Positions 4,953 to 30,708 are shown, counted from the stretch's first letter. The stretch: 64,000 nucleotides of DNA from GCF_057098645.1 NZ_CM169472.1; one strand, 5' to 3'. The notes: generated by a model from the letters alone, not told the origin. Numbers and translations: made by a program.

Positions 4953-5708
4953 CTACATATCAGCCAACAACATCCCAGCCATGCCATCCAGCCGTTTCTT
5001 GACCTTTTCCCACCCAGGCATAACCTGCCCCATCAGGCGGTAAAACTCTTCACTGTGGTTGTGCTCAGCAACATGGCATAACTCATGTAGCAAAACATAA
5101 TCGATACATTCTGAGGATGCCTTAACCAGCCATGGATTCAGGGTCAGACAGCCTTTTGCTGAACAGTTGCCCCATTGCGTTTGCATCGCCCGCAGACGTA
5201 TCGGAGGACGCTCACTGACCCAAAGGGTCTGCGGAATCAGTAAATCAAGCCTGCGCTGAAAAACATCTCTGGCACGTTCCCGATACCATTCAGCCAGCAA
5301 GGCTTTAATCTTTTCTGCCGATTTGTGTCTGACAGTCACTTCCAGACGCCCACGCAACATTTTCACTCGTTGCGGCACAGTAGCGTCTTCTGTCACTTTC
5401 AACTGATATTGCTTACCGAGATAATAATGGCTTTCTCCGCTGACATACTGACGCGGAACAATGTGTGTCTGTTGCTCCCTGAAATCACGCAGTTGCTGGT
5501 ATATCCAGCGCCCACGTTTTTTCAGCGCAGACAATACCTCGTGCTCCGGTGTTTCAGGCGGTACAGAGGCCACAACCCGGCAGTCCGGATAAACCTTGAT
5601 GAGCACCCTGCCCTTTACGACCTGACGCGGAACACACTGTACGACGATGACCTCATCACCATAGACAATGCGTAACGCTTTCATTGATGGCGATTCTTTT
5701 TCACTCAT
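4953..5708 (-). CDS. DUF45 / M48-like zinc metallopeptidase (YgjP-like)
   Basis: 251-aa ORF with HELCHVAEHNH (HExxH) motif; start overlaps hsdR stop by 4 bp, implying co-transcription; this family commonly follows hsdR. Confidence 0.7.
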   Translation of the reverse strand: MSEKESPSMKALRIVYGDEVIVVQCVPRQVVKGRVLIKVYPDCRVVASVPPETPEHEVLSALKKRGRWIYQQLRDFREQQTHIVPRQYVSGESHYYLGKQYQLKVTEDATVPQRVKMLRGRLEVTVRHKSAEKIKALLAEWYRERARDVFQRRLDLLIPQTLWVSERPPIRLRAMQTQWGNCSAKGCLTLNPWLVKASSECIDYVLLHELCHVAEHNHSEEFYRLMGQVMPGWEKVKKRLDGMAGMLLADM

Positions 5709-9058: not shown

Positions 9059-10843
9059 TTATGATGAAAAGAACGGCGAGTCCCGATAAAGGCGATTGTA
9101 CTTGACCTGTTCTGTTTCGCCCTTGTTTACATTACCAAATTTCTCCTGATGCGTCGTACAGCAGGAACCACAGGATGCACAAATAAATCGTCCTTCTGAA
9201 CATTTTTCATGCAAATCCCTGGCGTCAATTATTTCGCTGCATTTGTAACCAATACAGTGATTAATGTAATGCCCGATACCAAACTGTTCGCACGAATGAC
9301 TGGCACATTTAAAGACGGTCAGGCGATACGCGGCCTGGAAAGGTTTTTTCACAAATCCTTTCGACTTTGTATCCCAGACGCTGACTTCCACACGAGCATA
9401 TTTCATATCTGGAACCATCAGCACCCCACAACTTCGGCAATGCAAGCGGGAATGTAATTCTCTGATACGATTGAAATACCCAGCCAGTTTAATTGGGAAA
9501 TCCCGCTTAGAAGGTTCGCCTGCAATCAGATAGGTCATGCCATAGTGGGCAAGCCAGTCATAAATAGTGAAGTCGATGTAATCCCGACTGAGGTCGGGTA
9601 GTACCTGCGGATCATGGCAGATTTTCGAACGACAAAGGAATTTTTTCTCTATCGTTCCGTCAGGTTGTTTTGCATTCCAGTGAAATGCCTCACAGGATAA
9701 TTTTAAATTCCGGGAACGAATTTTCAATGAGCTACACTGTGGGAACAATTTGAAAACAGAAGGATGGCTTACCGGGATTTTACCCGACAACACTCCCTGC
9801 CATATCTCATGCAGAATAATACTCAGAACGGACTGTTCATCGTTACGCCCAATCAGCGGTAACAATTTACTCAGAATAAAGTATTCAGGGTCAGAAGAAA
9901 TTTCAGTATTCGACTCAATATCATTAACAAAACTGAAATCTTTCCTGAACATCTTCTGTTTAATCAAATACTTATTGACAAAAGGACTAATCACGGAATG
10001 TTTATAAAATTGCTCTCTCGATGAGAATTTCTGCTGATAGGCATCACGGACAAATGGTTGTATATCCATTTTATTTTTCGTGAAACTACGTCGAACAAAA
10101 TTCTCTATATCATCATGCCGATGTTCAAGAATCCGCTCGCTGCTTATACAATCGTAAAATGCCAGGTAGAGAATAGCACTTATAGATATATGGCTGAGTA
10201 ATTCATTGATGATGTCCGATGTTGAAGCCCCCTGGCAATCCGTAGCCGCAGAACACCTTTTCACCCAAACAGCGAACTGATCAATGTTATTATCGATAAA
10301 TGACGAAGGCATGACTGCAGGAGATATTTGTTGTGCGGTCAAATCATCAAAATTCTTATCAGAGGCGAAAAGTGCAAACTGGTTATCGTAGTTACGTGAT
10401 TTTAAAAATAGCGGCAAGACTTTTGTAGCAGCTATATCACTGGTAACTAACCGAATTATAGCCCTTTCGCCAAAGGACTGAGTGAGAAAATTAATAACGC
10501 AGTCACGATAACGCCAACGAGCGAAATCAACGCCCTCCTCAATAATAGCCCGGAGATATTCAATAAGGAGCTCAGCCGTCTCCTCATCTGTTTTATCAAG
10601 AATGTGAACATTAAAAGCCGTAGGCTTACCATTTTTACCTGTACCTTCCCTGAACAGCACCGGTGCATTGTCTGCGGGTGTATAGTTCCGGCTTATCTCA
10701 TTCTTATGAAAAAACAGCTCATTACCATTCTCTGATAAGAGAAAGCCAAAGTTATTCTCCCGATCCGTTTTGCTGTTGTAGCCTCCGAACCAGAGAACAT
10801 TTCCCATGTACCACCGGGAACGATCCAGATTGTTCACTGCCAT
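9059..10843 (-). CDS. Hypothetical protein: N-terminal cold-shock-like (OB-fold) domain, large unknown middle region, C-terminal Cys-rich zinc-ribbon-like region
   Basis: ORF 9059..10921; start chosen at internal Met (MAVNNL...) to avoid a 56-bp overlap with the upstream gene; N-terminal NNFGFLLSENGNELFFHKNEI resembles the CspA-type GFGFI...VFVH motif; C-terminus has clustered CxxC / CxH / CxxC motifs. Confidence 0.55.
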   Translation of the reverse strand: MAVNNLDRSRWYMGNVLWFGGYNSKTDRENNFGFLLSENGNELFFHKNEISRNYTPADNAPVLFREGTGKNGKPTAFNVHILDKTDEETAELLIEYLRAIIEEGVDFARWRYRDCVINFLTQSFGERAIIRLVTSDIAATKVLPLFLKSRNYDNQFALFASDKNFDDLTAQQISPAVMPSSFIDNNIDQFAVWVKRCSAATDCQGASTSDIINELLSHISISAILYLAFYDCISSERILEHRHDDIENFVRRSFTKNKMDIQPFVRDAYQQKFSSREQFYKHSVISPFVNKYLIKQKMFRKDFSFVNDIESNTEISSDPEYFILSKLLPLIGRNDEQSVLSIILHEIWQGVLSGKIPVSHPSVFKLFPQCSSLKIRSRNLKLSCEAFHWNAKQPDGTIEKKFLCRSKICHDPQVLPDLSRDYIDFTIYDWLAHYGMTYLIAGEPSKRDFPIKLAGYFNRIRELHSRLHCRSCGVLMVPDMKYARVEVSVWDTKSKGFVKKPFQAAYRLTVFKCASHSCEQFGIGHYINHCIGYKCSEIIDARDLHEKCSEGRFICASCGSCCTTHQEKFGNVNKGETEQVKYNRLYRDSPFFSS

Positions 10844-10865
10844 GAGCAAGCCCCCTTCCGCTTTG

Positions 10866-11549
10866 TCAGTGCAGGCAGCACTTTTTAAATTTTTTACCAC
10901 TGCCACACTGACACGGGTCATTACGACCGGGCAGTTTTTCTGCCCCCTTCACGGGAACAGGCCGGGATGATGCCTCTGACATTCTCACCGACAACCAGTG
11001 CTGGTAAAGCGCCAGTGCCGCAGGCTGAATGAGAGTAATACTCTGTTCAAATTGAACAGGTGACATTTTCTCAACCACTGGGAAGTTCTTTTCAATACCA
11101 TGAAGGGCTATCGCCTCCAGCGAGGGACGTAAGGCCTCTGGCAAGGCTGACCAGTCATCCAGAGACCGGCCTTTCATATACCCGAAACACCACTCTTCGA
11201 CGATGGTATATGTCTTCCCCTTCACCTCACGTCCATTGAAAATCGGTTCAAACTGTTCAGGGGCCTCATACAGGCAGCCAGCGATATCGTTCATATGCTG
11301 AAAACACAGCCCCACAAAACGCGTCATCTCTTTTTCAGTGGTCCAGCGAGGGTGGTAATCACCTCGCCCCCAGATAGCACTGAGCCAGGTATTAGGGGAA
11401 ATCGTATTCGGGCCAGAGACAATCGCCGTCAGAAAGCCATCCAGCTCAGAGAAACAGAGCACAGAGTCATCATTGCCGTATTTCATCAACACCTCTTCCA
11501 GCCAGTCGATTTCCCGGTCAATCAGCGGCCCGCTTTTCGTCAGTTTCAT
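10866..11549 (-). CDS. YecA-like UPF0149 / SEC-C motif protein (island-borne paralog of core yecA)
   Basis: 227-aa ORF alignable over its whole length with YecA (1199..1864), roughly half identical by eye; same C-terminal [20 protein letters not shown] motif; start abuts the hsdS stop. Confidence 0.8.
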   Translation of the reverse strand: MKLTKSGPLIDREIDWLEEVLMKYGNDDSVLCFSELDGFLTAIVSGPNTISPNTWLSAIWGRGDYHPRWTTEKEMTRFVGLCFQHMNDIAGCLYEAPEQFEPIFNGREVKGKTYTIVEEWCFGYMKGRSLDDWSALPEALRPSLEAIALHGIEKNFPVVEKMSPVQFEQSITLIQPAALALYQHWLSVRMSEASSRPVPVKGAEKLPGRNDPCQCGSGKKFKKCCLH

Positions 11550-12189
11550 TCGGCAACCGCCTCATCGACCTTAACACGACGTTTGCCAGTCAGTAGCTGT
11601 TGCATCAGGGCTTTTTTCTCGTCTTTCAGGCAGGCGAGTTTTTTCTCCAGCGTGGAGATTTCAGCGTCGGCAGCGGAAAGGACGGCGGCGATTTTTTGTT
11701 GTTCTTTGATATCTAATGGCAACCTAAAGTCTTTCTCTTTAAGTTCTCGCATATGTCTGCTGTAACCTAAATTCGGAATATCTGTATTTGAAAGAAGATA
11801 GTATCCAAGTTTTGGTTCAAGTATTTTGCTAGTTTTTATTACTTGCGTTCCATCAGCACCGGGACAAAACACAAACTCAATCCATTTGACGCATCTTGTA
11901 TGATCGCCAAAAACAATCACAGGCACGTCCGAATAAACCTCTAAATTATTACAGTACCCAGCAATTCGACTTTGCCCTTGATCGATTATAGGGATGGAAC
12001 CTGACTGTAAATAATCGGAAGATTTGACTTGCGCCGATTTTTTATTTGCAACAATGAAAGCATTATCAAACGTTAAATATACCCACTCCCCATTAAACCT
12101 CCCCCCATTCTCATCCAGCAAGCGTTTTTGTCCGGTAAGCAATTGCTGCATCAGGGCTTTTTTCTGTTGCTGGCTGTTGGTGAGAAGCG

Positions 12190-13245
12190 GCTTTGTTGAA
12201 TAAATCAGATTTCGGGTAAGTCTCCCCCGTAGCGGGTTGTGTTTTCAGGCAATACGCACGCTTTCAGGCATACCTGCTTTCGTCATTTTGTTCAGCGCTC
12301 GTACCAGGGCCATAGCCTCCGCAACCTGACCATCGTAGTCACGCAGCGTCAGTGAACCCCCGAACAGCTGTTTTACCCGGTACATCGCCGTTTCCGCTAT
12401 CGAGCGACGGTTGTAATCTGTTGTCCATTTCCACCGCGCATTACTCCCGGTCATTCGCTGATTAGCCACTGCACGGTTACGGTCTGCATATTCACCGGGC
12501 CAGTAGCCCGCACCTTTTCGGGGAGGGATAAGCGCGCTGATTTTCTTACGCCGCAGTTCATCGTGACATAGCCGGGTATCGTAAGCGCCATCGGCGGCGG
12601 CTGACCTGATTTTCCGGTGGGTTTGCCGGATTAACCCGGGGAAGGCCTCTGAGTCCGTAACGTTGTTCAGCGACAGGTCTGCACAGATGATTTCATGTGT
12701 TTTACTGTCAACGGCGAGATGCAGCTTACGCCAGATACGGCGGCGTTCCTGGCCATGCTTTTTGACTTTCCACTCGCCTTCACCGAAGACCTTCAGCCCG
12801 GTGGAATCAATCACCAGATGTGCGATTTCACCCCGGGTGGGCGTTTTGAAACTGACATTAACCGACTTTGCCCGCCTGCTGACACAGCTGTAATCCGGGC
12901 AGCGTAGCGGAACGTTCATCAGAGAAAAAATGGAATCAATAAAGCCCTGCGCAGCGCGCAGGGTCAGCCTGAATACGCGTTTAATGACCAGCACAGTCGT
13001 GATGGCAAGGTCAGAATAGCGCTGAGGTCTGCCTCGTGAAGAAGGTGTTGCTGACTCATACCAGGCCTGAATAGCTTCATCATCCAGCCAGAAAGTTATG
13101 GAGCCACGGTTGATGAGGGCTTTATTGTAGGTGGGCCAGTTGGTGATTTTGAACTTTTGCTTTGCCACGGAACGGTCTGCGTTGTCGGGAAGATGCGTGA
13201 TCTGATCCTTCAACTCAGCAAAAGTTCGATTTATTCAACAAAGCC
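12190..13245 (-). mobile_element. IS5-family (IS903-group) insertion sequence, copy 1
   Basis: ~1057 bp; terminal inverted repeats GGCTTTGTTGAATAAATC at both ends; flanked by 9-bp target-site duplication GTGAGAAGC (12181..12189 and 13246..13254). Confidence 0.85.
12245..13213 (-). CDS. IS903-group (IS5 family) transposase
   Basis: 322-aa ORF; DDE transposase with ...LIDSTGLKVFGEGEWKVKKHG...WRKLHLAVD... region; identical protein encoded at 28742..29710. Confidence 0.88.
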   Translation of the reverse strand: MKDQITHLPDNADRSVAKQKFKITNWPTYNKALINRGSITFWLDDEAIQAWYESATPSSRGRPQRYSDLAITTVLVIKRVFRLTLRAAQGFIDSIFSLMNVPLRCPDYSCVSRRAKSVNVSFKTPTRGEIAHLVIDSTGLKVFGEGEWKVKKHGQERRRIWRKLHLAVDSKTHEIICADLSLNNVTDSEAFPGLIRQTHRKIRSAAADGAYDTRLCHDELRRKKISALIPPRKGAGYWPGEYADRNRAVANQRMTGSNARWKWTTDYNRRSIAETAMYRVKQLFGGSLTLRDYDGQVAEAMALVRALNKMTKAGMPESVRIA

Positions 13246-13815: not shown

Positions 13816-15339
13816 TCACGAGCCATAACCCAACTCCTTCAAATACCCTGCCATCTCAACTTCCAGCTTCGCCAGTTCCACCTTCAGTTGCTCACGCTCT
13901 GCTCGCACCGCCACCAGGTCAATCTCATCCTCTTCTTCAAAGGTATCGACATAGCGCGGAATATTGAGGTTGTAATCGTTGTCCTGAATTTCCTTCAGGC
14001 TGGCAAGATAGGCGTATTTCTCGACGTTATCGCCATCACGGTAGGTCTTGACGATTTTCTTAATGTTTTCTTCGCTAAGCTGGTTCTGGTTTTTACCTGC
14101 CTTGAATTCACGGCTGGCATCGATAAACAGCACCTTGTCATCAACTTTCTACTTTTTGAAAATCAGAATCGCAGCCGGAATCCCCGTACCGTAGAACAGT
14201 TTTTCCGGCAGACCAATTACCGCATCCAGCAAATTTTCGTCGATCAGTTTCTGGCGAATTTTACCTTCGCTGGAGCCACGGAAAAGCACACCGTGTGGCA
14301 CAACTACGCCCATACGGCCAGTTCCCGGTTTCAGGGTTTCGATCATATGCGAGATAAAAGCGTAATCTCCTTTAGTCTTCGGCGGTACACCGCGACGAAA
14401 ACGGCCAAACTTATCGTTCTCGGCCTCGTCATGGCCCCACTTATCGAGGCTGAACGGTGGGTTAGCGGTCACGATATCAAACAGCATCAGGTCGCCATTT
14501 TTATCGAGCAGCTTCGGGTTACGAATGGTATCGCCCCACTCGATTTTATGGTTGTCTTCCCCGTGCAGGAACATATTCATTTTCGCCAGCGACCACGTAG
14601 AACCGATCGCTTCCTGACCGAACAAGGCATAGTTACGACTATCATGCCCGGAGACAATTTTACGCCCACACTTCATCAATAATGAACCGGAACCACAGGC
14701 TGGATCGCAGATGGTATCACCCGGTTGCGGATCGAGCAGTTCTGCAATCAGGTCCGAAACTTCCGGCGGGGTATAGAACTCCCCGGCTTTCTGCCCACCG
14801 CTGGCGGCAAAGTTTTTGATCAGGTATTCGTAAGCATTGCCGATAACGTCCAGCGTACCGACACGACTCGGCTTCAGGTTGAGATCTTCACCGGCGAAGT
14901 CTTCCAGTAGCTGACGCAGTATGGTGTTTTTCTGTTTTTCTTCGCCAAGACGATCGGTGTTAAACGAAATATCCTGGAACACGCTTTTCCCGGCATCTTT
15001 CAGTTTGGTTCCGTTGGCTTCTTCGATTGCATGCAGAGCCTGATCGATACGCTCACCGTTACCCAGCTCATGGCGGCGTTCGTACAGCGCATAAAAGCTG
15101 GCACTTTTTGGCAGTACAAAACGCTCGTTGGCCATCATCGCTTCAATCAGTTCCGGCGCATCGCCATACTGTTCTTTGTATTCGTCATAGTGATCCTGCC
15201 AGACATCTGAAATGTACTTGAGGAACAGCATGGTAAGGATAAAGTCTTTATAGGTATCAGCACTGATGGTGCCACGGAACGTATCACACGCGGCCCACAG
15301 GGCTTTGTTGATCGTGTCCTGACTGATTTTGTCGTTCAT
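13816..15339 (-). pseudogene. hsdM: Type I R-M methyltransferase subunit hsdM with in-frame amber stop
   Basis: ORFs 14149..15339 (396 aa, N6-adenine MTase motifs incl. ...IVTANPPFS...) and 13816..14133 (105 aa) are in the same frame, separated by a TAG at 14149..14151. Confidence 0.75.
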
Positions 15340-15642
15340 GAATCATCCTGGTCTGAAGAAAAAGCTAGCGATGCAGGGCTTTGCATCTTAAAAATTGCGG
15401 TAAATGATACCGTAAGATGCCTCCCCTGACACGCCAATATCGCAGCATTCAGGTTTGCATCATCCCCGTAATATCGACATGAGACAGACTGACACAACCT
15501 GGCTCGTCACTCGCTAAAAACCAATTATCTTAGTAAGATAGCATCCATATTAGCCATGGTGTAAAACTGCCGTTGGGGTAATGATGATCCATATATCACC
15601 CATTCTGGTGTGTGAAGCTGACATCATCCATAATCGGCAACG

Positions 15643-16878
15643 TTGATGCCCTTTGATAGTAATGATGACCGTCAATGTGATTCCCCTGCTGACTGGAGGT
15701 CTCCGGATAGAATGAGTATTGCCAACTGCGCTATCGGCCCACTTTATGATGAGCAAATAAAAAAAACACTTATGTATGCTGACCATAAATTCAAGCGGCT
15801 AATGAATACACGAATGTCGTTACTCGAACATTTATCACCCCACTATGACTTATCTTCCATGTTCAGCTATGAGTTGGAGGGAAGAGTTTTTCGGATTAAA
15901 TTGATCAAGCCTGAGATTAAATTATCTCGCCAGCAGTTGATCTTCTCCTCACTCTTTTTAGAGCAAGATTTTCTAAAAGAATATAAAAAACACATCTCAA
16001 ATACTCTACAAAAAACAATCAAACAGTGCATTAAAAAATACAAACAAAAAATCAAAATCGAGCCTTCTATTTTAGATTACATATCAGCATCACCCCGCAA
16101 TACGTCGAGTTATGTATTACATGAGATAGTTTCTCAATGTGAACATTGCGATGAAATTCGCAATATTAAAAATGATATATTGCTTGATGAACTAACGTTG
16201 AATGGCCGGATCACTAACATTTCAAAATACATTAAAAATAGTCAAGATAAAATCGTCGAACATATAGAGTTCTGCACTCATAAACTTGTCAATATAAGTC
16301 GTAAGAATCGTCACATTTTCAACAGCACCACAATACCTGGTAGAAAACCTAACATCACTGGTGTTTTACTTTGCCTTTCGGAATTGATAAGCAACCTGCA
16401 TATTTACCCAACTGAAATTAATAATATAAGCAATGCCATAATATTAAGCATTGTATACTCTGTACTTCAACATCTTCAATCTGGAAGAGAAACAGAAAAA
16501 ACCAAAACCTCTCCAGCACTGAATTTCATCCCCACCATCATCGCACCTCATGTTTTCTACCTGGCGAAACGCGAAAAATCCTCTCAATATAAATACATTG
16601 AAAAAGAATATCTTCTCGGCCAGTTACTTATATTTTTGATGTATAAAACAGTTTACTACTCGATTCATAGCATCAGGGTAAGCCGTAAGCATTTCTATAA
16701 CGATATAAAACCAAAATTAATGACACTAAAAAAAGAAAGCTTATTAAGCACCAATTTCATGAAAAATCGAAGAGAGATTAGTGGTGAAGTCTTTGGTGAT
16801 GTTGGTAGTATTGAGGCTGATTTTCGAGAAATCAGCACATTGATTCATCGGCGAAAGGCTCTGTTTATTTCCTTTTAA
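15643..16878 (+). CDS. Hypothetical protein, AT-rich orphan ORF
   Basis: 411-aa ORF in a very AT-rich block; Lys/Ile/Asn-rich; no recognisable motif; true start may be an internal Met. Confidence 0.4.
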   Translation: MMPFDSNDDRQCDSPADWRSPDRMSIANCAIGPLYDEQIKKTLMYADHKFKRLMNTRMSLLEHLSPHYDLSSMFSYELEGRVFRIKLIKPEIKLSRQQLIFSSLFLEQDFLKEYKKHISNTLQKTIKQCIKKYKQKIKIEPSILDYISASPRNTSSYVLHEIVSQCEHCDEIRNIKNDILLDELTLNGRITNISKYIKNSQDKIVEHIEFCTHKLVNISRKNRHIFNSTTIPGRKPNITGVLLCLSELISNLHIYPTEINNISNAIILSIVYSVLQHLQSGRETEKTKTSPALNFIPTIIAPHVFYLAKREKSSQYKYIEKEYLLGQLLIFLMYKTVYYSIHSIRVSRKHFYNDIKPKLMTLKKESLLSTNFMKNRREISGEVFGDVGSIEADFREISTLIHRRKALFISF

Positions 16879-17279
16879 TCTTTAGAGAACACTATATCAT
16901 CGTGAAGCAGAGCTAATTTCAGCCTTGCATAGATCATTATCAATGCCATAGACAGTGTTAATCATATGACATCGTTCCGGTATTGATACTGATTATCAGG
17001 CCTTGGTTTTATGTAATTTAAACACCACCATCTCTGAAACCCCATAACGCTCACAATTTAACCATAAAAACTAACCGGTTTATACCCGCTAACAAAATCA
17101 ATAACATATTGAATTTAAATAACTATAACCATTCCAACTACAGATGACTGGCTTTTATTTATGGTATATGTCCCGGCAGAATCAAGCTTGCGCCCTCTAC
17201 CACTCACGATTTAGGATTTCCTCGCTAACACAGCATGTTTCATTATAAATCAATGTATTAATTTAAACGAGGATAAACC

Positions 17280-18126
17280 ATGTTCGAGAAAATGAAAAAC
17301 AATGTAACCCGTGTACCGGGGAATTTAACCATACTTAATCAATACCAAAAAGACATTGATCACCTGTCTAAATTATTTTCTGAACAGCTATTACTGGATC
17401 TAATGACGACTACCAACCCTAATCAAACATTGCAAATGAAACCTTCTGTAGATATTCTTCATGTACTATCTCCATCAGCATCCACTGCTAACCATATCAA
17501 TTTTTTTCAGCACGTCCCAGTGATCGAACTATGGTTAAAAAAGGAGTGCACTGCCTTTAATTCACTTGCTATTTATTTCTATGCACAGCAATCCCGTAAA
17601 AATGTCATTCCGAAAAAAAATCTGTAGACAACTGGACGTATTTATTAATACTGAACTTGCATCTGCGGTTAATGGCAATAGTAATTCTAAACCCCTTTTT
17701 CATTTTCTAAATAACTACCTTTATCATCCTAAAATGATTGCATTGATCATTTTATCTATGCTGCCTTATGAAGTCATTCGTAACGATGAATCACTGAGTG
17801 AGTTTAAAACACCATTAACCACACCCGATGAGTTTATTATCAAAGCATTTTGCGTTAAAGGTACGCAAAACACCACGGGACATAAAAAAGATATCGAACA
17901 ATTGCTTCGAAAAACATATATCTACATTGCATTACTTTTGAACCCTGAGTGGGTACCATCATCCAAGGATTTGATTTCCTTTTTATCAGGAGAGTCCACC
18001 GAGATAAGTGGTTCAATGAATTTCCAGTCAACGTCCAGTGGTCTGGGTGTTCAAACTAACAATATCACTCTTCTTAAGAATGAGGTTTACTTCGAAAAAA
18101 TAGCGAACAAGATCATGAAACTGTAG
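17280..18126 (+). pseudogene. Hypothetical AT-rich gene split by +1/-1 frame change at an A8 tract
   Basis: ORFs 17280..17627 and 17566..18126 overlap in different frames across the homopolymer AAAAAAAA at 17613..17620; removing one A fuses them into a ~282-aa ORF. Confidence 0.45.
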
Positions 18127-18269: not shown

Positions 18270-19400
18270 ATGCCCATTCTGGATCTGCGTTTCAGCAACA
18301 AATCACTTCACCAACTTCCCCATCCCCTCACGGGCTGTCAGGAATACCGTGATATTCACTGCCAAAACCTGCGTGCTCTGGTGTATCCCAATCGGATCAC
18401 GCTGGCCTTTCGTGCCACTATAAACAATCAGCGTATATATGAACCCCTGGGTCAGTTCCCTCAGCTCTGCGTTGAGGATGCCCGTCAGCATGTGATGAAA
18501 CTGCTTGCTGATAAAAATCGTCTTGCGGTTCAGTCCCGTCGATTCACTGTGGAACAGGCCATCAATGACCTGTGGCTACCGGATTTGCAGTTGTATAAAA
18601 AGAGTCCTCAGTCAGAGTTGTCAAAACTCAACCTCTACGTTCGCCCGTTCTGGGGCAAGCGGCAACTTCGCGACATCACGGCAGGAGAACTAGAACAATA
18701 TGCTGCTGGCTTACGGGAAAAATTACGTCCGTCAACAGTAAACCGTATCCTCGCAATATTGTCCAAAATATGCTCTCTGGCAGTACGTGCTGGATGGATC
18801 ACGCATTCCCCGATGTCACATGTCCGCTATCTGAAAGAAAATAACATTCGCTATCGCACACTATCAGCGACAGAAATCCCGCGCTTTATTGACGCGGCAA
18901 CAGCGCTGCAAACACCGGCAGCTGATTCTATATTGCTTGCTCTTTATACGGGGATGCGTATTGGTGAGGTATGTACCCTGAAATGGGAGTACTGGCACCT
19001 GGATATGCATCAACTCATACTGCCTGATACAAAGTCCGGACACCCTTTCACCTGCCCACTTGCACCTCCAGCCATTGCAGTTGTCCAGTGCCAGCAGGAC
19101 CTGATGCTCAGCAAAACTTACATTTTTCCGCGACTAACCGACAATGCCCGCCCTCTGGCATATCCGCGTGCAACCTTTGCCCGTATTTGCCGGGATGCCG
19201 ACATTGATAACCTGCGGATGCATGACCTGCGCCGTACCTTTGCCACCCGGGTACTACAGGCGACCGGGGATATTGCAATCGCTTCCCATCTGCTAAATCA
19301 CCATTCACTCACGGCGACCCGTCGCTACGCTTTTCACAATGCAGCGACATCACACGCAGTGGTTTCTCAGGTCATTGAAAGTTATGACACGAAAAAATGA
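18270..19400 (+). CDS. Tyrosine recombinase / phage-type integrase
   Basis: 376 aa from the ATG at 18270, which is preceded by AGGAG; C-terminal catalytic region ...HDLRRTFATRVLQ...HLLNHHSLTATRRYAF (R..H..R..Y). Confidence 0.85.
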   Translation: MPILDLRFSNKSLHQLPHPLTGCQEYRDIHCQNLRALVYPNRITLAFRATINNQRIYEPLGQFPQLCVEDARQHVMKLLADKNRLAVQSRRFTVEQAINDLWLPDLQLYKKSPQSELSKLNLYVRPFWGKRQLRDITAGELEQYAAGLREKLRPSTVNRILAILSKICSLAVRAGWITHSPMSHVRYLKENNIRYRTLSATEIPRFIDAATALQTPAADSILLALYTGMRIGEVCTLKWEYWHLDMHQLILPDTKSGHPFTCPLAPPAIAVVQCQQDLMLSKTYIFPRLTDNARPLAYPRATFARICRDADIDNLRMHDLRRTFATRVLQATGDIAIASHLLNHHSLTATRRYAFHNAATSHAVVSQVIESYDTKK

Positions 19401-19608: not shown

Positions 19609-19786
19609 GAACACGGAAAATAACGCTAATAATGCACTGAACATTCTTCCCGAATCAGCAAGCACAGCTGTAGACAACGATGAAAAATATCTGTCCTTTG
19701 CATTAGTTCTCGCTATCACGATTATGGGCAACTGAACCGCCCCGGGAATCCTGGAGACTAAACTTCCTGAGAAAGAGGTAAACAGG

Positions 19787-20113
19787 ATGACTAAAAATAC
19801 TCGTTTTTCCCCTGAAGTCCGTCAACGGGCAGTCCGTATGGTTCTGGAAAGTCAGGGCGAATATGACTCACAATGGGCGACAATTTGTTCCATTGCTCCA
19901 AAGATTGGCTGTACGCCGGAGACTCTGCGTGTCTGGGTTCGCCAGCATGAGCGGGATACCGGGGGCGGTGATGGAGGGCTCACCACCGCTGAACGTCAGC
20001 GTCTGAAAGAGCTGGAGCGTGAAAATCGTGAACTGCGCCGCAGTAACGATATCCTTCGCCAGGCTTCCGCTTATTTTGCGAAGGCGGAGTTCGACCGCCT
20101 CTGGAAAAAATGA
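19787..20113 (+). CDS. IS3-family transposase OrfA (HTH)
   Basis: 108-aa [22 protein letters not shown]..., typical IS3-family OrfA with leucine-zipper-like C-terminus. Confidence 0.85.
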
Positions 20114-21000
20114 TGCCACTGCTGGATAAGCTGCGTGAGCAGTACGGGGTCGGACCGCTATGCAGCGAACTGCATATTGCCCCGTCAACGTATTACCACT
20201 GTCAGCAACAGCGACATCATCCGGATAAACGCAGTGCCCGTGCGCAGCGCGATGACTGGCTGAAGAAAGAGATACAGCGCGTATACGATGAAAATCACAA
20301 GGTATACGGTGTGCGTAAAGTCTGGCGTCAGTTGTTACGGGAAGGTATCAGAGTGGCCAGATGCACTGTGGCACGTCTCATGGCGGTTATGGGACTTGCC
20401 GGTGTTCTCCGGGGTAAAAAGGTCCGTACGACCATCAGCCGGAAAGCCGTTGCCGCAGGCGACCGCGTAAACCGTCAGTTCGTGGCAGAACGACCTGACC
20501 AGCTGTGGGTGGCTGATTTTACTTACGTCAGCACATGGCAGGGCTTCGTCTATGTGGCGTTCATCATTGATGTGTTTGCCGGATACATTGTGGGGTGGCG
20601 GGTCTCATCGTCCATGGAGACGACATTCGTGCTGGATGCACTGGAGCAGGCGTTATGGGCCCGTCGACCGTCCGGCACGGTCCATCACAGTGATAAAGGT
20701 TCTCAGTATGTATCGCTGGCCTACACACAGCGGCTTAAGGAAGCCGGATTACTGGCATCAACAGGAAGTACAGGCGACTCGTATGACAACGCGATGGCGG
20801 AGAGCATCAATGGTCTTTACAAAGCGGAGGTAATACACCGTAAGAGCTGGAAAAACCGTGCAGAAGTGGAACTGGCCACACTCACGTGGGTGGACTGGTA
20901 TAACAATCGACGATTGCTGGAAAGGCTGGGCCATACTCCTCCGGCAGAAGCAGAAAAAGCTTATTATGCTTCCATCGGAAACGATGATCTGGCAGCCTGA
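20110..21000 (+). CDS. IS3-family transposase OrfB (DDE integrase-like catalytic domain)
   Basis: 296-aa ORF with DDE motif region (...WVADFTYV...HHSDKGSQY...[10 protein letters not shown]...). Confidence 0.85.
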
Positions 21001-21662
21001 GTTCACAGATAAAACACTCTCCAGGAAACCCGGGGCGGTTCAAACTTAGTAAAGCTCATCGGCACAGATGGCTTCATACTTTATACCTACACCCTGCAGG
21101 ACACGGCTACTGCTCGTGCTGTTTTTAATGAATTAGCCAGGCGTCTCAAAAATTTCAATCGTCAGGAGGAGGTCTACACCACCGATTCCCTCACCTTTCG
21201 AATGAAATACATTTACGGTGTTACCCTGTTCGAACATGATAGTAAATCTATCCTTAACCTTTTTGATAAGAAGGGTTATCCAGTATTGAGTGAATCAGGA
21301 GAACCCGGTTCTCTTGATGATATGTATCTTGACATTCAAGCCCGATTACATGGCGGCTACGCCTCAAAAAAGTTTCTTCATTTACATGAACATTGTCTGT
21401 TATCTGCACACGTTACCCCGTCTGTGGAAAAGACGCAACGTGGTATCCTGATTAAAGCAGGCAGGAAACTCGTTTCCTTTATCTATGCAGATAATGAATC
21501 TCGCAAAAATGATATTTTCAAAGCTGTAGTAGACGTCATTAAATCCTGATTCATTATGCCGGGTGCGTATTCCGCTCTATTCGATCACGGATTGGCATCG
21601 AAGTCCGATCAGCGATTCGCATCCATTCGATCAACCGGGAACTTAACTTTTTCTACCGCTTT

Positions 21663-22418
21663 TTAACGCGTTTTTTCGCTGCTTTCCACTACCGGGGGAT
21701 TTTTCCTCAGTGACTCTCCCTGAAGGACCACTCGGTGTGAGTTATGTACCAGTCTGTCCAGGATGGCATCTGCTGTTGTTGGGTTCTCCATCAGACCATG
21801 CCATTTATCTACCGGGAACTGGCTTACCACTATCGTGCTGCTTTGTCCGTAACGATCCTCTATGAGCTCCAGAAGGTCATTACACTGGGCGTTACTTAAC
21901 TGTTCCAGCCCCAGATCGTCCAGGATTAGAACCTGTATTTTTTGCAACTGTTTCAGATATTTCAGCCAGCTGCCATCAACACGTCCCTGAGCCAGTTGTT
22001 CCAGTAATCGCCCGGTTCTACAGTACCGGACGCTGTGTTTCTGTCGACATGCCTGTTCGCCCAGCGCATTGGCTATCCAGCTCTTGCCACATCCTGTCGG
22101 ACCGGTTATCAGCAGGTTTTTCCTGTGGGTTATGTAGTGGCCGTTCAGCAGTTCTCTCATCTGTTCAGCCCGCAGACCTCTTGAGGCCGGATAGCGCAGC
22201 CCTTCCGGTGTTGCCTGGTATTTCAGGCCGGCATTTTTTCTCAACCGTGCCACACGGCTGTTTTCCCTGCTCAGAAGCTCGTCATCAACCAGCAGCGTCA
22301 GCCTTTCCTCGAACGACAGTTCGTCGTAGGTCTGAGGCGTTTCCCGCTGCCGTATCAGGCTCCCGGCCATCGCCGGGAGTTTCAGTTGGGTCAGTTTGTT
22401 TAACAGGTTATCACTCAT
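21663..22418 (-). CDS. istB: IS21-family helper ATPase IstB
   Basis: Walker A GPTGCGKS and Walker B-like ILDDLG motifs; start set at MSDNLLNKL within the longer ORF 21663..22661. Confidence 0.8.
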   Translation of the reverse strand: MSDNLLNKLTQLKLPAMAGSLIRQRETPQTYDELSFEERLTLLVDDELLSRENSRVARLRKNAGLKYQATPEGLRYPASRGLRAEQMRELLNGHYITHRKNLLITGPTGCGKSWIANALGEQACRQKHSVRYCRTGRLLEQLAQGRVDGSWLKYLKQLQKIQVLILDDLGLEQLSNAQCNDLLELIEDRYGQSSTIVVSQFPVDKWHGLMENPTTADAILDRLVHNSHRVVLQGESLRKNPPVVESSEKTR

Positions 22419-22434
22419 ACTGTTGTTCCTTCTG

Positions 22435-23970
22435 TCAGTGGTAGTAGCCCGGACCACGCAGGTTTTCATGCTCTGAAGCATATGCCGGATGTTGTTCGCC
22501 CTGGCGGGATAATGGAAGCTCCAGGTTCTCCCGATGGTGACGCAGCAGATTGTCGATAAAGCGTCTGTCAGGGGCGTTATAGTGCAGGGCAACGTAACAG
22601 GCCTTTTCCAGCCGTTCCGGGCCGTATTTTTTCTGAAGTGCCAGCAGCCCCAGAACTGCACGATAAGCCAGTTCCGGATGGGGTTTTGCCTTCAGCATGG
22701 ATTCAACCACCCGGCCTGTGGACGGGCCCGTACGTTTTCCCTGCTCGATCAGGCGTTCCGGTGTCCATGTCCCGTGCTGCCGGTGGCGCTCTGGCATGTG
22801 AAGCGGATTGGTTGTGTGTTTATATTCATGTGTGCTGCGCGGATGTTGCGCCACACACTGCCCCTTGTGCCAGAGCTGTACCACCGACTGCCCCGCCTTC
22901 AGTGACAGACGCTGACCGACCAGTTCGTGTGGAACGGAGTACCAGTGACGGGCATATTCAACGTGGTAGTCAGGGCCAACCTTCACAGCTTTGTATTCCG
23001 TGTATTCATAAGGTGCCAGAGGCAGCGGAGAGAGTGCTGGCGCATCCAGTATGCGGAAGCGTTCTGCACGGGTTTGATTGCCGTACCCCTTCATTGGCCG
23101 GTTATTCATGTCTGTCAGTAACTCCCTAAGGCGCGCATTCAGCGCCCTGAGCGTGTGGAAGGTTTCATTACGGATGCGGGCAAGAAGCCATCGTTCAACG
23201 ATGAGGACGCCGTTTTCTGCTTTTGGTTTATCTTTAGGTTTGCGTGGTCGGGCCGGGATGATAACCGTGCCATAGTGCTCAGCCAGTGCCTGATAACTGT
23301 CGTTGATGACAGGCTCATATCGATCGGCCTTTTTCACTGCGCTTCTGAGGTTATCGGGGATGAGCAGCTTCGGTACGCCGCCCAGGAAGGTCAGGCAACG
23401 GCTGTGGGCATTTAACCATGACATCATGTCCTGACCTTCGCACGCTTCAACGTAGGTATAGTTGGACGCCCCCATTACGGCCACGAAGATTGCCACGCGG
23501 CGTATCTCACCGGTGTCCGGATTAATAACAGGAACCGTAGGACCACAGAAGTCGATAAAAAGCTTTTCGCCGGCACGATGCTCCTGGCGCATGGAGAGAC
23601 GTCGCGTTTTTTTCCACTCCCGGTAGCAACGGCAGAAGTGCGAGTATCCCATCGCTTTGTTACCCGCCTGTGCCTTGTATTCCATCCACAACAGTTGCCG
23701 CGTCACACCTGGTTTTCTCATTTCCGTATCGAAGTACAACATGTCAGGCATTACAAGCTCTGATGCAAAGGTGTCTTTGGGCGGAAAAATGAGTTTCTCC
23801 AGCGTGTCATGGGATATATCAGCAGGTAATGGCCATGACAGAGAAGAGGCTTTGAAGCGGGCAAGAACCTCAAAAACGGTTGAGGCGCTGATGTGTAACG
23901 TCAGTCCGATACAACGGTTAGTCAGCTTCTTGTCGAACTTGAGCTGAAGGATCTTAAAACAGGTTTCCAT
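22435..23970 (-). CDS. istA: IS21-family transposase IstA
   Basis: Large ORF 22435..24081 with N-terminal HTH and DDE catalytic region; start uncertain (internal Met chosen); overlaps istB start, as typical for IS21. Confidence 0.75.
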   Translation of the reverse strand: METCFKILQLKFDKKLTNRCIGLTLHISASTVFEVLARFKASSLSWPLPADISHDTLEKLIFPPKDTFASELVMPDMLYFDTEMRKPGVTRQLLWMEYKAQAGNKAMGYSHFCRCYREWKKTRRLSMRQEHRAGEKLFIDFCGPTVPVINPDTGEIRRVAIFVAVMGASNYTYVEACEGQDMMSWLNAHSRCLTFLGGVPKLLIPDNLRSAVKKADRYEPVINDSYQALAEHYGTVIIPARPRKPKDKPKAENGVLIVERWLLARIRNETFHTLRALNARLRELLTDMNNRPMKGYGNQTRAERFRILDAPALSPLPLAPYEYTEYKAVKVGPDYHVEYARHWYSVPHELVGQRLSLKAGQSVVQLWHKGQCVAQHPRSTHEYKHTTNPLHMPERHRQHGTWTPERLIEQGKRTGPSTGRVVESMLKAKPHPELAYRAVLGLLALQKKYGPERLEKACYVALHYNAPDRRFIDNLLRHHRENLELPLSRQGEQHPAYASEHENLRGPGYYH

Positions 23971-24594
23971 AGTGCTCCTGGATTTTCTCTTTCTGGACAT
24001 TGACGTCTCCACTGGTTTAAACACGGCAATGGAGACTGTGGTGAAAAGAGTTAATTCCCGGAGTGACTGGCAGGATGCCAATCAATGATCGGAAGCATGC
24101 CAAATCGTGATCGATTGTGATGCCAAACTGTGATCGGAGATGGATGCCAAATCATGATCGATTCGAATGCCAAACTGCGATCGATTCAGATGCCATTTTG
24201 CAGCCGGGGGGGACGAACTCCCGGCATTTTTTCGGAGTTAACTATGAGCAATAATTTGCAGGACATCCTCGCTGCCGCATCGGGGTATCAGTCCGTGACT
24301 TCAGAGCCAGCGCTCAATCTTAAAAGACCTAAAACGCTTGATGATTATCCTGTGATACCACCTGCATCAAAAAAAGTATCTGTTATTTCAAGTGACCTGA
24401 CACTCCATATCGGTTTTGATACCGAATATGTTTTCAATCCTGAAACACAACAGAATGATATTCTGTCATATCAGAGTTATGTTGTCTTACCCGATAATAC
24501 AGGTATATCGAACATTATCTATCCACCTGACTCACAGAAAAAATCCCGGCTGTCTTTTAAGAACTTTCTCTGTCAAACGATTATGGATTTGCCC

Positions 24595-25500
24595 CTATAT
24601 TTCCAGACATCTGTTATCACTTAACCCATTACAAGCCCGCTGCCGCAGATATTCCCGTGGCGAGCGATAACCCAGCGCACTATGCGGATGCCATTCGTTA
24701 TAATGCTCGAACGCCTCTGCAAGGTTCTTTGCTGCCGTTAACCCGTCTGGTTTGGGCATGATACTGATGTAGTCACGCTTTATCGTTTTCACGAAGCTCT
24801 CTGCTATTCCGTTACTCTCCGGACTCCGCACCGCCGTGTTCTTCGGTTCAAGTCCCAACATCCGGGCGAACTGGCGTGTTTCATTAGCCCGGTAGCATGA
24901 ACCATTATCCGTCAGCCACTCCACTGGAGACGACGGAAGATCGTTGCCGAAGCGGCGTTCCACCGCTCCCAGCATGACGTCCTGTACTGTTTCACTGTTG
25001 AAGCCGCCGGTAGTCACCGCCCAGTGCAGTGCCTCACGATCACAGCAGTCCAGCGCGAACGTGACACGCAGTCTCTCTCCGTTATCACAGCAGAACTCGA
25101 ACCCGTCAGAGCACCATCGCTGATTGCTTTCTTTCACGGCCACTCTGCCTGTATGTGCCCGTTTCGATGGCGGTACAGCAGGTTTTCGCTCAAGCAACAG
25201 CGCATTCTGGCGCATGATCCGGTAAACACGTTTGGCATTGATCGCAGGCATACCATCAAGTTCTGCCTGTCTGCGAAGCAGCGCCCATACCCGACGATAA
25301 CCATACGTGGGCAGCTCTCCGATAACATGGTGTATACGGAGAAGCACATCCGTATCATCAGTGTGACGACTGCGGCGGCCATCCATCCAGTCATCGGTTC
25401 GTCTGAGAATGACGTGCAACTGCGCACGCGACACCCGGAGACAACGGCTGACTAAGCTTACTCCCCATCCCCGGGCAATAAGGGCGCGTGCGCTATCCAC
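24595..25500 (-). CDS. insD: IS2 transposase OrfB (InsD)
   Basis: 301-aa [24 protein letters not shown]... with DDE integrase core; overlaps insC as expected for a frameshift-fusion transposase. Confidence 0.85.
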
Positions 25501-25823
25501 TTTTTTGCCCGTCCATATTCAACGGCTTCTTTGAGGAGTTCATTTTCCATCGTTTTCTTGCCGAGCAGGCGCTGGAGTTCTTTAATCTGCTTCATGGCGG
25601 CAGCAAGTTCAGAGGCAGGAACAACCTGTTCTCCGGCGGCCACAGCAGTAAGACTTCCTTCCTGGTATTGCTTACGCCAGAGAAATAACTGGCTGGCTGC
25701 TACACCATGTTGCCGGGCAACGAGGGAGACCGTCATCCCCGGTTCAAAGCTCTGCTGAACAATTGCGATCTTTTCCTGTGTGGTACGCCGTCTGCGTTTC
25801 TCCGGCCCTAAGACATCAATCAT
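25458..25823 (-). CDS. insC: IS2 transposase OrfA (InsC)
   Basis: Starts [26 protein letters not shown]..., the InsC sequence as recalled; taken from the internal Met of ORF 25458..25868. Confidence 0.85.
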
Positions 25824-27974
25824 CTGTTCTCCAATGACTAGTCTAAAAACTAGTATTAAGACTATCACTTATTTAAGTGATACTGGTTGTCTGGAGATTC
25901 AGGGGGCCAGTCTAGATTACACCGCTTCTTGAAACGGGTGTGATTACAAAATGGCCCGGTATTATTAATATATATGCGCATTTCATTCGTGCGGATATCA
26001 CCTCCTTTGCCAATTTCTGGTCAGACTACAAAATTCTTCTGAAAGGAATACGCGGTACTGTCAGCAGCTTCAAAAATCGTTACGGTATCGATTTTGATGA
26101 ACAGCAGGAACGTCGCGTAAAGACTGAACAGATAATGTTTGACAAACGAACTTCCCCTCCGCGTTGCAGTAACGTAGCTTTCATCGATACACTGCTTATC
26201 ACTCCCGGGGGTATGGGTCTGGCTGAATGTGGTGAATTACTGGGTCTTCCCAAACTGACCATTCCTGCACCTTATTCCATAACCAATATGCGTGAATATC
26301 TTCTGGGCGACAGAGCAGGGTTTGAAGCCTATGCTCTGCGGGATGCCGAGATTGCGGTTCGTTATGCTTTACAGGTTCGCAATTTTTGCGCCCGGGAGCT
26401 GATGATTGATCGTGTCCCCGCCACCATCGGGGCGATGGCAGTTTCACGGTTCACCAAAACACTTAAAGAAAACAATATGTCTCCTGAAGTCTGCCTTGGG
26501 ACACACATTAAAACCCGTGAACTCTGGCTCACGGAGAAACAGGCATTCCGGACGATTAAAAACCCCGCCAGTGTTCCTTCAAGAGAGCTGTTTGAAACGT
26601 TCCCGATCAACTGTTACCACGGCGGACGCAATGAGTGTTTTATGATGGGGGTTACACCGTCTGATCACTGGTATGACTACGATCTGGCTGGAGCGTATAC
26701 CACCGGGCTATTAGATATCCTCATACCCGATTACGGAAACATCCGCCTCAGTAAAAATCCGGACGATTACTGTGGGCATGTAATGGGATTTGCGTTTGTC
26801 ACATTTCAGTTCCCGGAATCAGTTCCCTATCCCAGCCTGCCGGTTCGGACCGATCAATATGGGTTATTCTTTCCATTAAGTGGCGAATCATGGGCAACGG
26901 CACCTGAAATCGAACTTGCTCTGTCGCTCGGGGCAGAGATGACGATCCATAATGGGATCATCGTCCCCTGGATCTGTGACACCTCCCCACATAACAGCGA
27001 ATCAACATCGGTGTTTCTTCCCTTTGTTCAACAGGTCCGTGAGAACCGTAATCGCCATATTAAAGGTTCTCTGGAGGAGAAATTCTGGAAAGAAATTGGC
27101 AACTCGCTTTATGGCAAACTTGCTCAGGGCCTTCGCGCCAAAACCGCCTTTGATACTGCCCGTGGATTAAACAGATCCCTCCCACCATCATCGGTTACTC
27201 AGCCATTCTTTGCTGCGCATGTGACGGGATTTATCCGCGCCGTTGTCGGGGAACTCATGAATGCTTTGCCTTCTGATTCATCGGTTGTCAGCGTCACAAC
27301 CGATGGCTTTTTGACAAATTGCCCACTTAACAAGATAAACATGAGCGGTCCACTGTCTTCCCGCTTCCAGTCGCTGTGCGATATTGTTGATCCGGGTTCA
27401 TCAATGTTGACATGTAAGCATGAGGTCAGCCAGCTTATCGCCATGAAAACCCGGGGGCAGTTAACCTATAGAGCTATTCAGGGAAAACCTGTTGTTCATG
27501 CCAGGGCTGGCGTCAAACCTCCTGCCGATATTCCACGCAGTGACTATAACGACTATATGGTAGATCTTTACCTTAATCGTTTACCCGGTCAGACGTTATC
27601 CCGAAGTACGTTGATATCAACGCGTGAGATGTGGCTGTCGGAAAGCGATCTGGTATCCCGGGAACAGGATATCCGTCTTAATCTGGAATTCGATTTCAAA
27701 CGCCAGCCCGTACAGCCCGCCATGAATGAAGGGCATTTACTGATGTCTTCCCGCCCATGGGATAATATGGAAGAGGCTCTGCAGCAACGCTCTCTTTTCG
27801 ACGACTGGCGGCAAACGCATACACTGAAGACCCTGGCTGACTGGGATGACTGGTGTGATTTTCTCTATTGCCGGACGGTGTTTTCTGATATGAAACTAAA
27901 AGTCGGAAGCAAACGTAGTGATGATATTTTAGTCAGACTATTTCTCCGGGCGCTGACTCAGTGCCAATGGGGGC

Positions 27975-28523
27975 TTATGCTGAAAGATAAAAAAAGTTAT
28001 TCCTGTAAAGAGGTTGCTGAATGGCTGACGTCAGAAGGCTATTCAGTAACATGTCAAAAAGCACCTGCTGGATCTCCCGGGCCCGAAGGTCGCAGTAACG
28101 TATCTTCCCCAGACGAGGTTCAATGTATTGCGTGAAACGCTGAACATCCTTATCCCAGGACTTTTTATGGCGTTTGATGAACGGAACATAGGTCTGGTGA
28201 AAAAACTCACTAAGTGTTGGCATCGCACGATAATTATCGCGTTCTGCTTTAGGGTCATTTCCCAGTGCAATCGCCTCCTTGTGACGACGAGCTATCTGAC
28301 GGGCTGTCCCCACATCGATTTCAGGGAATCTGCCAATACTGATACTTTTTTTGGTACCGTGGAATGTGTAGCGCAGGAGGAAACGTTTGTTACCCGTTCG
28401 ACCTGAGAGACATTTGAGGCCTATGACCTCGGTATCTGATACCTCAAGCTCTGTAGATCGGGTATCTGTGTTTGCCGGAAGGGCTTTGATGGATGAATTG
28501 GTGAATCGGAAGGATTTTTGCAT
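27975..28523 (-). pseudogene. Truncated P4-type integrase (N-terminal arm-binding domain only)
   Basis: ORF 27975..28553; MQKSFRFTNSSIKALP...GTARQIARRHKEAIALGNDP resembles the DUF4102 arm-binding N-terminus of P4-family integrases; no catalytic domain; 3' part overlaps the piPolB 3' end on the opposite strand. Confidence 0.5.
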
Positions 28524-29766: not shown

Positions 29767-30578
29767 CCGTGCCGTTTGAAGAATACTGGCATTCACCGAT
29801 AAAAATCATGCTGGTTGGACGTGAAACCGCAGGCTGGAATACGCTGAATGGTAAGAATACGATATCACGGGTGTTGGGACTTATACCTGACGTCACCATC
29901 GGGCAAGTGGTTGAAGAAGCTGTAGATCGTTACAGGAAACATCTTCCGGTACAAAATTATGGCACCGCCAACCTCAAATCACGTAGCCGCTTCACGCAAT
30001 ATCATTTCAGGCTGGCCCGGGAGCTTAATATTCTTCCCCAGGCAATCGTGTATGCCAATCTACTGGCGTGGGATTACGACGGACTGACCCCTCTCAATCG
30101 CCCTCAAAATGAAGTGCAGGAAGTCATATTAGCCTCGCTGAAGCTACTGGCGGTACAAATTAAACACCTTGAGCCTGATTTCATCATCTTTGCATCTGGA
30201 GCCCGGAGAACAGACTACATCATAAAACAGGTGCTTACTGAGCTAGGCGGCTATGAGACTTCTTCAGTCATTCCGGGGAAGCTGTGGGAGTTCAAAACAG
30301 GTAATACAATCTGTTTCAGAATTGCCCATCCAAGGGCTATGCGCGGACACCAGAAGTACAGAGATGAGGTGATTGCACGAATTAAGCAACTTTGTACTCA
30401 GGGTGGCTAGAGCATTACAGCTTGCTCAGCAGGGCCCCTTCCCGGAAGAGTACCGGAAAACAGGCAAAGCAACCTGGTTCTCTATGCTGGAGGCGACACG
30501 TTCGATTCGGCATTGCCAGGCTGGAGATTGCAGCTCATTGCACCCCGTGAGCACAGGATATGCACAGGACATGAATTT

Positions 30579-30708
30579 CAGGCACAAAAAAACCACCCGG
30601 AGGTGGTTTCACGACACTGCTTATTGCTTTGATTTTATTCTTATCTTTCCCATGGTACCCGGAGCGGGACTTGAACCCGCACAGCGCGAACGCCGAGGGA
30701 TTTTAAAT
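30579..30708. repeat. Right direct repeat (attR): leuZ 3' end plus downstream terminator region
   Basis: 130 bp matching 1986..2115 with one mismatch; overlaps the intact tRNA-Leu 3' 56 nt. Confidence 0.85.
30586..30612 (-). terminator. Rho-independent terminator of the glyW-cysT-leuZ tRNA operon
   Basis: Minus-strand hairpin aaccacc-tccg-ggtggtt followed by a T7 run immediately 3' of leuZ. Confidence 0.7.

Follow-up and report, generated by a model that had tools for sequence, protein, structure and literature searches.

Pipolins are widespread mobile islands that encode a primer-independent family-B DNA polymerase (piPolB). In E. coli they are inserted at tRNA-Leu, are bounded by att direct repeats and carry piPolB (PMC7385651). 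They have been characterized as defence islands, in which an extensive defence cargo accompanies a compact core, the role of the IntP2 recombinase has been described and known defence genes make up ~16-20% of the gene content (PMC11551731). The conserved core also contains 'several orphan proteins' (PMC11551731), and among its 'hypothetical protein' groups, several that occur in 64-93% of the E. coli elements lack an HHpred hit (PMC7385651, Table S3). The island examined here is the same type of element as those whose orphan 'shell' genes were reported in these papers, and shares with them the tRNA-Leu site, att repeats, piPolB, an XerC-like/IntP2 recombinase with an excisionase, and type I restriction-modification (R-M) cargo. 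Neither paper describes the integrase-proximal slot of AT-rich orphan genes reported here, or a role for the orphan gene (hereafter gene 1) that is our main subject.

The psu-int locus of P4-like satellites is a defence hotspot, many of whose unannotated genes have been validated as anti-phage systems (PMC9122126). It resembles the pipolin slot in being a variable, integrase-adjacent locus of a small integrative element, occupied by differing and often unannotated genes. The two loci are nevertheless distinct: the element carrying gene 1 is a pipolin with no psu or cos, just three occupants of the slot were seen here (gene 1, gene 2 and orf236), its content is fixed in E. coli, and homologues of gene 1 are found in no phage or plasmid record.

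Lactococcal Abi proteins, including AbiJ, are abortive-infection proteins that act as single-gene systems. Like gene 1, they are ~350-400 aa in length, Lys/Ile-rich, and encoded singly by AT-rich genes on mobile elements. Unlike AbiJ, the gene 1 product scored just 17.1 bits with the AbiJ_NTD4 model (PF18863), whose cut-off is 34, and inspection revealed no conserved HEPN-type motif in it.

The window, by which we mean the whole 64,000 nt stretch of DNA analysed, contains an island of 28.6 kb with a 133-bp direct repeat on either side, situated between chromosomal yecA and the tRNA-Leu-Cys-Gly, pgsA, uvrC cluster. The landmarks of the island are as follows.

1983-2115, no strand assigned: attL, the left 133-bp direct repeat.
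18270-19400, plus strand: IntP2, an intact P2-type tyrosine recombinase (Pfam Phage_integrase, 5e-22; annotated by RefSeq in relatives).
24245-28135, plus strand: piPolB, the pipolin hallmark gene, cut by an IS2 element.
30576-30708, no strand assigned: attR, the right 133-bp direct repeat, overlapping the 3' part of tRNA-Leu.
30653-30739, minus strand: tRNA-Leu.

The 133-bp repeats, the insertion at tRNA-Leu, the gene order IntP2-Exc-orphan-piPolB and the match to published pipolins together lead us to identify the island, on sequence grounds, as a pipolin. In the relative L001 the polymerase is an 851-aa protein that matched the PHROG DNA polymerase model (1e-6), with a weak match to Pfam DNA_pol_B_2, and is named 'DNA polymerase type-B family protein' in RefSeq. 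The window piPolB shares 99.6% DNA identity with it and is split by IS2; the intact polymerase would be primer-independent. In intact relatives, the leftward genes are GmrSD, a 169-aa ORF, an M48 peptidase, hsdR, an optional cold-shock-domain protein, a YecA-like protein, hsdS and hsdM. The rightward genes are gene 1, gene 2, the tyrosine recombinase, an HTH_17 excisionase-like gene, a 212-aa orphan (orf212) and the 851-aa family-B polymerase. On the tRNA side lies a second, Arm-domain integrase, which is a remnant in L001, and DUF2787 and WYL genes were found in the relatives L002, L003, L013 and L015. The preliminary description had placed gene 1 in a defence island, and the cargo of the pipolin (GmrSD, type I R-M and the PADLOC candidate PDC-S12) bears this out. 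Of 5,426 complete E. coli genomes, 422 have piPolB, 288 IntP2, 265 gene 1 and 250 gene 2.

The region between hsdR and hsdS (9059-11549, minus strand) encodes a 620-aa protein with a weak match to the cold-shock domain and the 227-aa YecA-like SEC-C protein, which is the PDC-S12 match (8.5e-98). The YecA-like gene is kept at this position in the E. coli and Edwardsiella pipolins, and the cold-shock-domain gene is optional. We also observed that the island YecA-like gene shares an 81-nt stretch of 75% identity with the chromosomal yecA beside attL.

The surroundings of gene 1 in the window are listed below.

13816-15339, minus strand: hsdM, carrying an amber codon (CAG to TAG, Q397*, 14149-14151); intact in strain PapRG-06-5 (507 aa).
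15340-15642, no strand assigned: intergenic region from which hsdM (leftward) and gene 1 (rightward) diverge.
15643-15711, plus strand: 5' part of the mechanically called ORF, probably an untranslated leader; contains GGAGG.
15712-16878, plus strand: gene 1, an orphan coding sequence of 388 aa plus stop, with its start placed by homologue alignment.
16879-17279, no strand assigned: AT-rich spacer of 401 bp between gene 1 and gene 2.
17280-18126, plus strand: gene 2, a pseudogene here, having gained one base at 17613 and lost 285 bp at 17711.

A 411-codon AT-rich ORF had been reported between hsdM and the integrase, and the mechanically called plus-strand ORF (15643-16878, TTG start) is indeed present, far beyond the length expected by chance. 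Its placement needs qualification: hsdM and the integrase do flank it, but a second AT-rich orphan, gene 2, intervenes before the integrase. Translation of gene 1 most probably starts at ATG 15712, giving 388 aa, instead of at 15643, because the diverged homologues all begin at the methionine equivalent to 15712 in the alignment, because a GGAGG sequence (15695-15699) lies 12 nt before this ATG, and because the ~40 nt of upstream similarity to the L004 element stops there. The RefSeq pipeline places the start in relatives at an ATG equivalent to position 15646. Homologues in Salmonella, Edwardsiella and L004 do not include the segment 15643-15711. The DNA of this segment differs by just two substitutions between E. 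coli and Edwardsiella; the hsd side is similarly conserved, and the two sequences start to diverge at the ATG.

Comparison of this junction between E. coli and Edwardsiella tarda gave an observation of its own. The HsdM proteins share 98.6% identity and the DNA between hsdM and gene 1 is nearly identical (window 15320-15712 compared with L003 9609-10001), whereas from gene 1 onward the sequences are just 57-70% identical. This abrupt drop indicates a recent exchange of the R-M module, with its breakpoint at the gene 1 start codon.

A promoter scan of 15340-15642 revealed no convincing plus-strand promoter consensus, and the flanking spacers gave no Rfam match and empty promoter and terminator scans. 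Directly after the gene 1 stop codon, most E. coli alleles carry ~105 bp of additional sequence (L005 8168-8280) that includes a terminator-like hairpin, GAGAGACTGA...TCAGCCTCTC; this segment is missing in the window and in L001.

The GC content across 15750-18000 was 0.32-0.36 in 500-bp windows, against 0.48-0.52 for hsdM and the integrase. Gene 1 itself has a GC content of 0.344 and a GC3 of 0.352, compared with GC contents of 0.503 for the integrase and 0.505 for hsdM. Its product is a basic 45-kDa protein (388 aa, pI 9.5). It had been characterized as Lys/Ile/Asn-rich, which is accurate for Lys (9.8%) and Ile (12.1%), but Asn is only slightly raised (5.4%); Leu (11.1%) and Ser (9.8%) complete the composition. 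No transmembrane segment was found, the Kyte-Doolittle maximum over 19 residues (1.23) being under the usual value for a membrane helix. The protein is predicted to be mainly alpha-helical, based on low-confidence AlphaFold2 models.

Gene 1 is a real, conserved gene under purifying selection and not a degraded remnant, one of the outcomes that the preliminary description had said would refute its reading. At the base composition of gene 1, the probability of 388 stop-free codons arising by chance is ~5e-13, and shuffling the AT-rich block 500 times produced no ORF longer than 149 codons. The mean pairwise dN/dS of intact alleles was ~0.16, compared with 0.18 for the integrase, and none of the nine full-length alleles, which come from E. 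coli, Citrobacter and Intestinirhabdus, contains a stop codon. Homologues down to 47% identity retain the length of the protein and more than 100 invariant residues. Truncated alleles also occur: a common allele (1,082 member sequences) lacks the C-terminal 34 residues, E. coli O145:H28 RM12761 has lost the first 34 codons through a deletion that also spans hsdR to hsdM, and in NCTC9080 an IS1 element is inserted in the gene. Gene 1 has thus been kept in many lineages and is dispensable in others. A mosaic homologue, P0009, follows the Salmonella/Edwardsiella type over its ~115 N-terminal residues and is close to the E. coli type in its C-terminal part; comparison with P0010-P0012 and the window protein points to recombination inside gene 1.

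The gene had been described as an orphan with no recognizable motif, and database searches agreed on both counts. The gene 1 family comprises 13 clusters among 5.8 billion protein clusters, all from Enterobacterales (E. coli, Klebsiella aerogenes, Salmonella and Edwardsiella, plus read-archive assemblies). When one genome per species was scanned, just four further Enterobacteriaceae emerged, with 94-97% identity: Citrobacter amalonaticus, C. koseri, Franconibacter helveticus and Intestinirhabdus alba. A remote homology search with a profile HMM yielded no homologue outside the family: against 1.84 billion cluster representatives, the family profile recovered nothing beyond its own members and their frameshifted fragments, and against PDB sequences there was no match up to E = 10. 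Gene 1 had no significant match in Pfam, NCBIfam or PHROGs, PADLOC-DB v2.0 (2023) held no family that matched gene 1 or gene 2 at E <= 1, and tblastn detected no match in 72,556 plasmids and 50,697 phages. We recognized no catalytic or sensor motif in the protein, no helix-turn-helix or other DNA-binding profile, and no similarity to anti-restriction or anti-defence families. A literature search found no published description of the family, and its RefSeq protein accessions yielded no paper.

An abortive-infection or toxin function had been proposed for gene 1; no Abi or toxin family matched. The AbiJ_NTD4 hit (E = 0.008) was produced by just two near-identical E. coli members out of seven, and we therefore rejected it as a chance match; inspection of the invariant residues revealed no conserved HEPN-type R-x4-6-H. 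The abortive-infection or toxin reading is a plausible guess from genomic context, not a finding. AlphaFold2 models were too poor for use, with a pLDDT of 41 for the full-length protein (seven-sequence alignment) and 46 for the N-terminal 130 residues. Within the family, D46 and E68-I-K70 (in 'KPEIK') are invariant and a beta-hairpin is predicted at residues 50-63, in models with pLDDT <50 and no profile match; the arrangement D46...E68-x-K70 beside a hairpin would be compatible with a PD-(D/E)xK nuclease motif.

The genes around gene 1 vary between elements. Gene 2, a second AT-rich orphan that encodes 376 aa when intact, is unrelated to gene 1: BLASTP and hhalign gave no indication that the two are distant paralogues, and orf236 and orf198 of L017 were likewise negative. 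In the L004 element, gene 1 is present without hsd genes and without gene 2, in a module consisting of gene 1, an integrase and a DUF927 primase. Conversely, Hafnia pipolins carry hsdRSM without gene 1, and pipolins of Serratia and Hafnia carry gene 2 without gene 1. Since it is found without R-M genes and without gene 2, gene 1 can be regarded as a stand-alone module. These distributions, together with the divergent orientation of gene 1 and hsdM, rule against gene 1 as a type I R-M component and against a functional tie to the R-M operon.

The constant partner of gene 1 is a co-oriented P2-type tyrosine recombinase that lies downstream of it. E. coli and L004 share 45% identity in gene 1 and 27% in the adjacent integrases; between E. 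coli and Edwardsiella, the corresponding values are 57% and 69%, with IntP2 and piPolB at 68-69%. The mismatch between gene 1 and integrase identities indicates that gene 1 has moved between elements, after which it either landed, or was retained, in the same relative position. The L004 element and the Hafnia pipolin are 39-55% identical in the pipolin core genes that they share on the IntSXT side (DUF2787, two small orphans and IntSXT). Only chance-level short repeats were found in a search for flanking repeats that would bound a gene 1 cassette. In L004, an exact 14-nt direct repeat, GAAATAATATGTGT, occurs at 5113-5126 and 12500-12513 and brackets gene 1, the integrase, the DUF927 gene, a 139-aa ORF and IntSXT. 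Such pairs are expected by chance at ~0.15 per 9-kb stretch and the repeat may be nothing; if real, it would mark the bounds of a nested element.

The position upstream of the integrase is itself variable. In Serratia and Hafnia it is filled by gene 2, at 40-42% identity to the E. coli form and next to an integrase of 78% identity, and in L017, from a compost metagenome with an integrase 40% identical, by orf236, a third unrelated orphan. The GC content of these occupants is 0.33-0.35 for gene 1, 0.35 for orf236 and 0.35-0.39 for gene 2, against 0.47-0.53 for the adjacent integrase and polymerase genes. Based on five contexts, we make the modest observation that pipolins have a variable slot directly upstream of IntP2, at the junction of the defence cargo and the island core. 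Low GC content had been taken as a sign of horizontal acquisition, but gene 1 retains a GC content of 0.33-0.35 in three lineages with 45-57% protein identity, between flanks of 0.47-0.53. An equally low GC content in all three argues for a maintained property and not a mark of recent arrival. In E. coli, gene 1 is part of a fixed syntenic block, with no visibly swapping cassette.

The pipolin copy in the window is badly decayed. Scored against strain PapRG-06-5, its further lesions, beyond those in hsdM and gene 2, are the following.

12189-13245: IS5-family element in hsdS.
19422/19423: 144-bp deletion relative to L001 (12368-12510), removing the sequence from the integrase stop codon to the first codons of the HTH_17 excisionase-like gene.
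19734-21042: IS3-family element in the core region.
21564-24202: IS21-family element in the core region.
24584-25914: IS2 element splitting piPolB.
28710-29765: second IS5-family element.

Five insertion sequences are thus present in one island, the two IS5-family copies being identical; their targets are hsdS, the 212-aa orphan, the orf212/piPolB junction, piPolB and a 246-aa orphan. This number suggests an IS-rich host lineage. The amber codon in hsdM and the insertion in hsdS mean that the type I R-M system of the island is dead, though hsdR is open. Also open in the window are gene 1, the integrase, GmrSD and the genes for the cold-shock-domain and YecA-like proteins. The gene 2 lesions recur in E. 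coli O145:H28 RM12761, together with an identical integrase, which was the closest integrase match; the exact arrangement of the window was found in none of the complete E. coli genomes of the collection.

What gene 1 does can be approached through its neighbourhood and its pattern of conservation. We tentatively place first the proposal that gene 1 is a single-gene conflict determinant, mediating exclusion of phages or other mobile genetic elements, because it is stand-alone, patchily distributed, fast-evolving, AT-rich and integrase-adjacent, like the cargo of the psu-int hotspot. Low GC content in all lineages, a narrow and patchy taxonomy and often broken alleles would fit a conflict gene. 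Other observations count against this proposal: gene 1 has no database model match, homologue or recognized motif; no plasmid or phage copies were found, unlike the pipolin defence genes that are reported as exchanged; it lies in a fixed syntenic block in E. coli; and its constant, co-oriented linkage to the integrase could mean a mobility-related role. Under that last reading, which we consider rather unlikely, gene 1 would be an accessory or regulatory factor of the IntP2 mobility and replication module, whether a regulator of the integrase, excisionase and replicase, an accessory in recombination or target choice, or a factor interacting with a helper element. Gene 1 always lies upstream of, and co-oriented with, a P2-type recombinase followed by a replication gene, and does so in two non-orthologous contexts, IntP2-Exc-orf-piPolB in E. 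coli and Edwardsiella and Int-DUF927 primase in L004. Its frequency in complete E. coli genomes tracks that of the integrase (265 against 288 for IntP2 and 422 for piPolB), and a pI of 9.5 would fit DNA binding. However, pipolins of Serratia and Hafnia have the same IntP2 (78% identity), Exc and piPolB and yet no gene 1, which is therefore not needed by the IntP2 module. The 400-550 bp of non-coding DNA before the next gene, the lack of a DNA-binding profile, the 5' truncation in O145:H28 and the C-terminal truncation in the 1,082-member allele also weigh against a mobility role.

A counter-defence or establishment factor, which would shield the incoming island or a partner element from host immunity, is in our estimation improbable. 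An orphan, fast-evolving, AT-rich gene for a basic protein at the edge of the mobility module of a mobile element would suit such a factor, as would evolution faster than the core (57% identity between E. coli and Edwardsiella, against 68-69% for IntP2 and piPolB). Typical anti-defence proteins, however, are smaller than 388 aa, and gene 1 resembles no known anti-restriction or anti-defence family. Pipolins moreover have no definable leading region, and their transfer route is unknown (PMC11551731). We give very little credence to gene 1 and gene 2 working together, whether as a toxin-antitoxin addiction pair or as a two-component defence. The genes are adjacent and co-oriented in E. coli, Salmonella and Edwardsiella and occur at similar frequency in complete E. 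coli genomes (265 and 250), but each is found alone, which largely refutes the idea. A spacer of 400-500 bp separates them (401 bp in the window), they diverge at very different rates, and in the window and in O145:H28 gene 2 is wrecked by a frameshift and the 285-bp deletion, while window gene 1 is intact; an obligate pair was rejected on this evidence. It is just as improbable that gene 1 has no current function and persists by chance as a silenced, hitch-hiking ORF. The frequency of broken alleles, the IS1 insertion in NCTC9080 and the lack of homologues outside the family would be expected of such an ORF, but the dN/dS of ~0.16, the retention of length and of many invariant residues down to 47% identity, and the chance probability of a 388-codon ORF in 34%-GC DNA (~5e-13) all speak against it. 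A role beyond all of those named here is unlikely, though by no means negligible.

Returning to the proposal of a conflict determinant, we envisage gene 1 as a stand-alone accessory gene of the enterobacterial pipolin, occupying the slot immediately upstream of the P2-type integrase. Its product would be a soluble, basic, mostly helical 45-kDa protein that acts as a phage- or mobile-element-exclusion factor of an undescribed family. The basic charge suggests nucleic-acid binding, and the protein would probably act on nucleic acid or on an invader protein. Gene 1 may be expressed from its own promoter, with its level held low by xenogeneic silencing of the AT-rich DNA by H-NS. We infer the defence role, the molecular target and the silencing by H-NS from the properties described above.

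The pipolin as an island type and the orphan genes within it were already known; the new element is a slot that holds unrelated AT-rich orphans. The broader idea, that the integrase-proximal slot of pipolins collects unrelated AT-rich single-gene modules and that gene 1 founds a new anti-phage or anti-mobile-element family with a new fold and mechanism, seems to us somewhat doubtful. Gene 1 is an uncharacterized accessory gene of a defence island and a reasonable candidate for a defence screen, which will come as no surprise to specialists. It is present in ~5% of complete E. coli genomes (265/5,426). If gene 1 is a defence or exclusion factor, it would represent a new protein family and would flag the integrase-proximal slot of pipolins as a place to search for others; if it is a mobility factor, it would offer a first handle on the control of pipolins, elements whose route of transfer is unknown.
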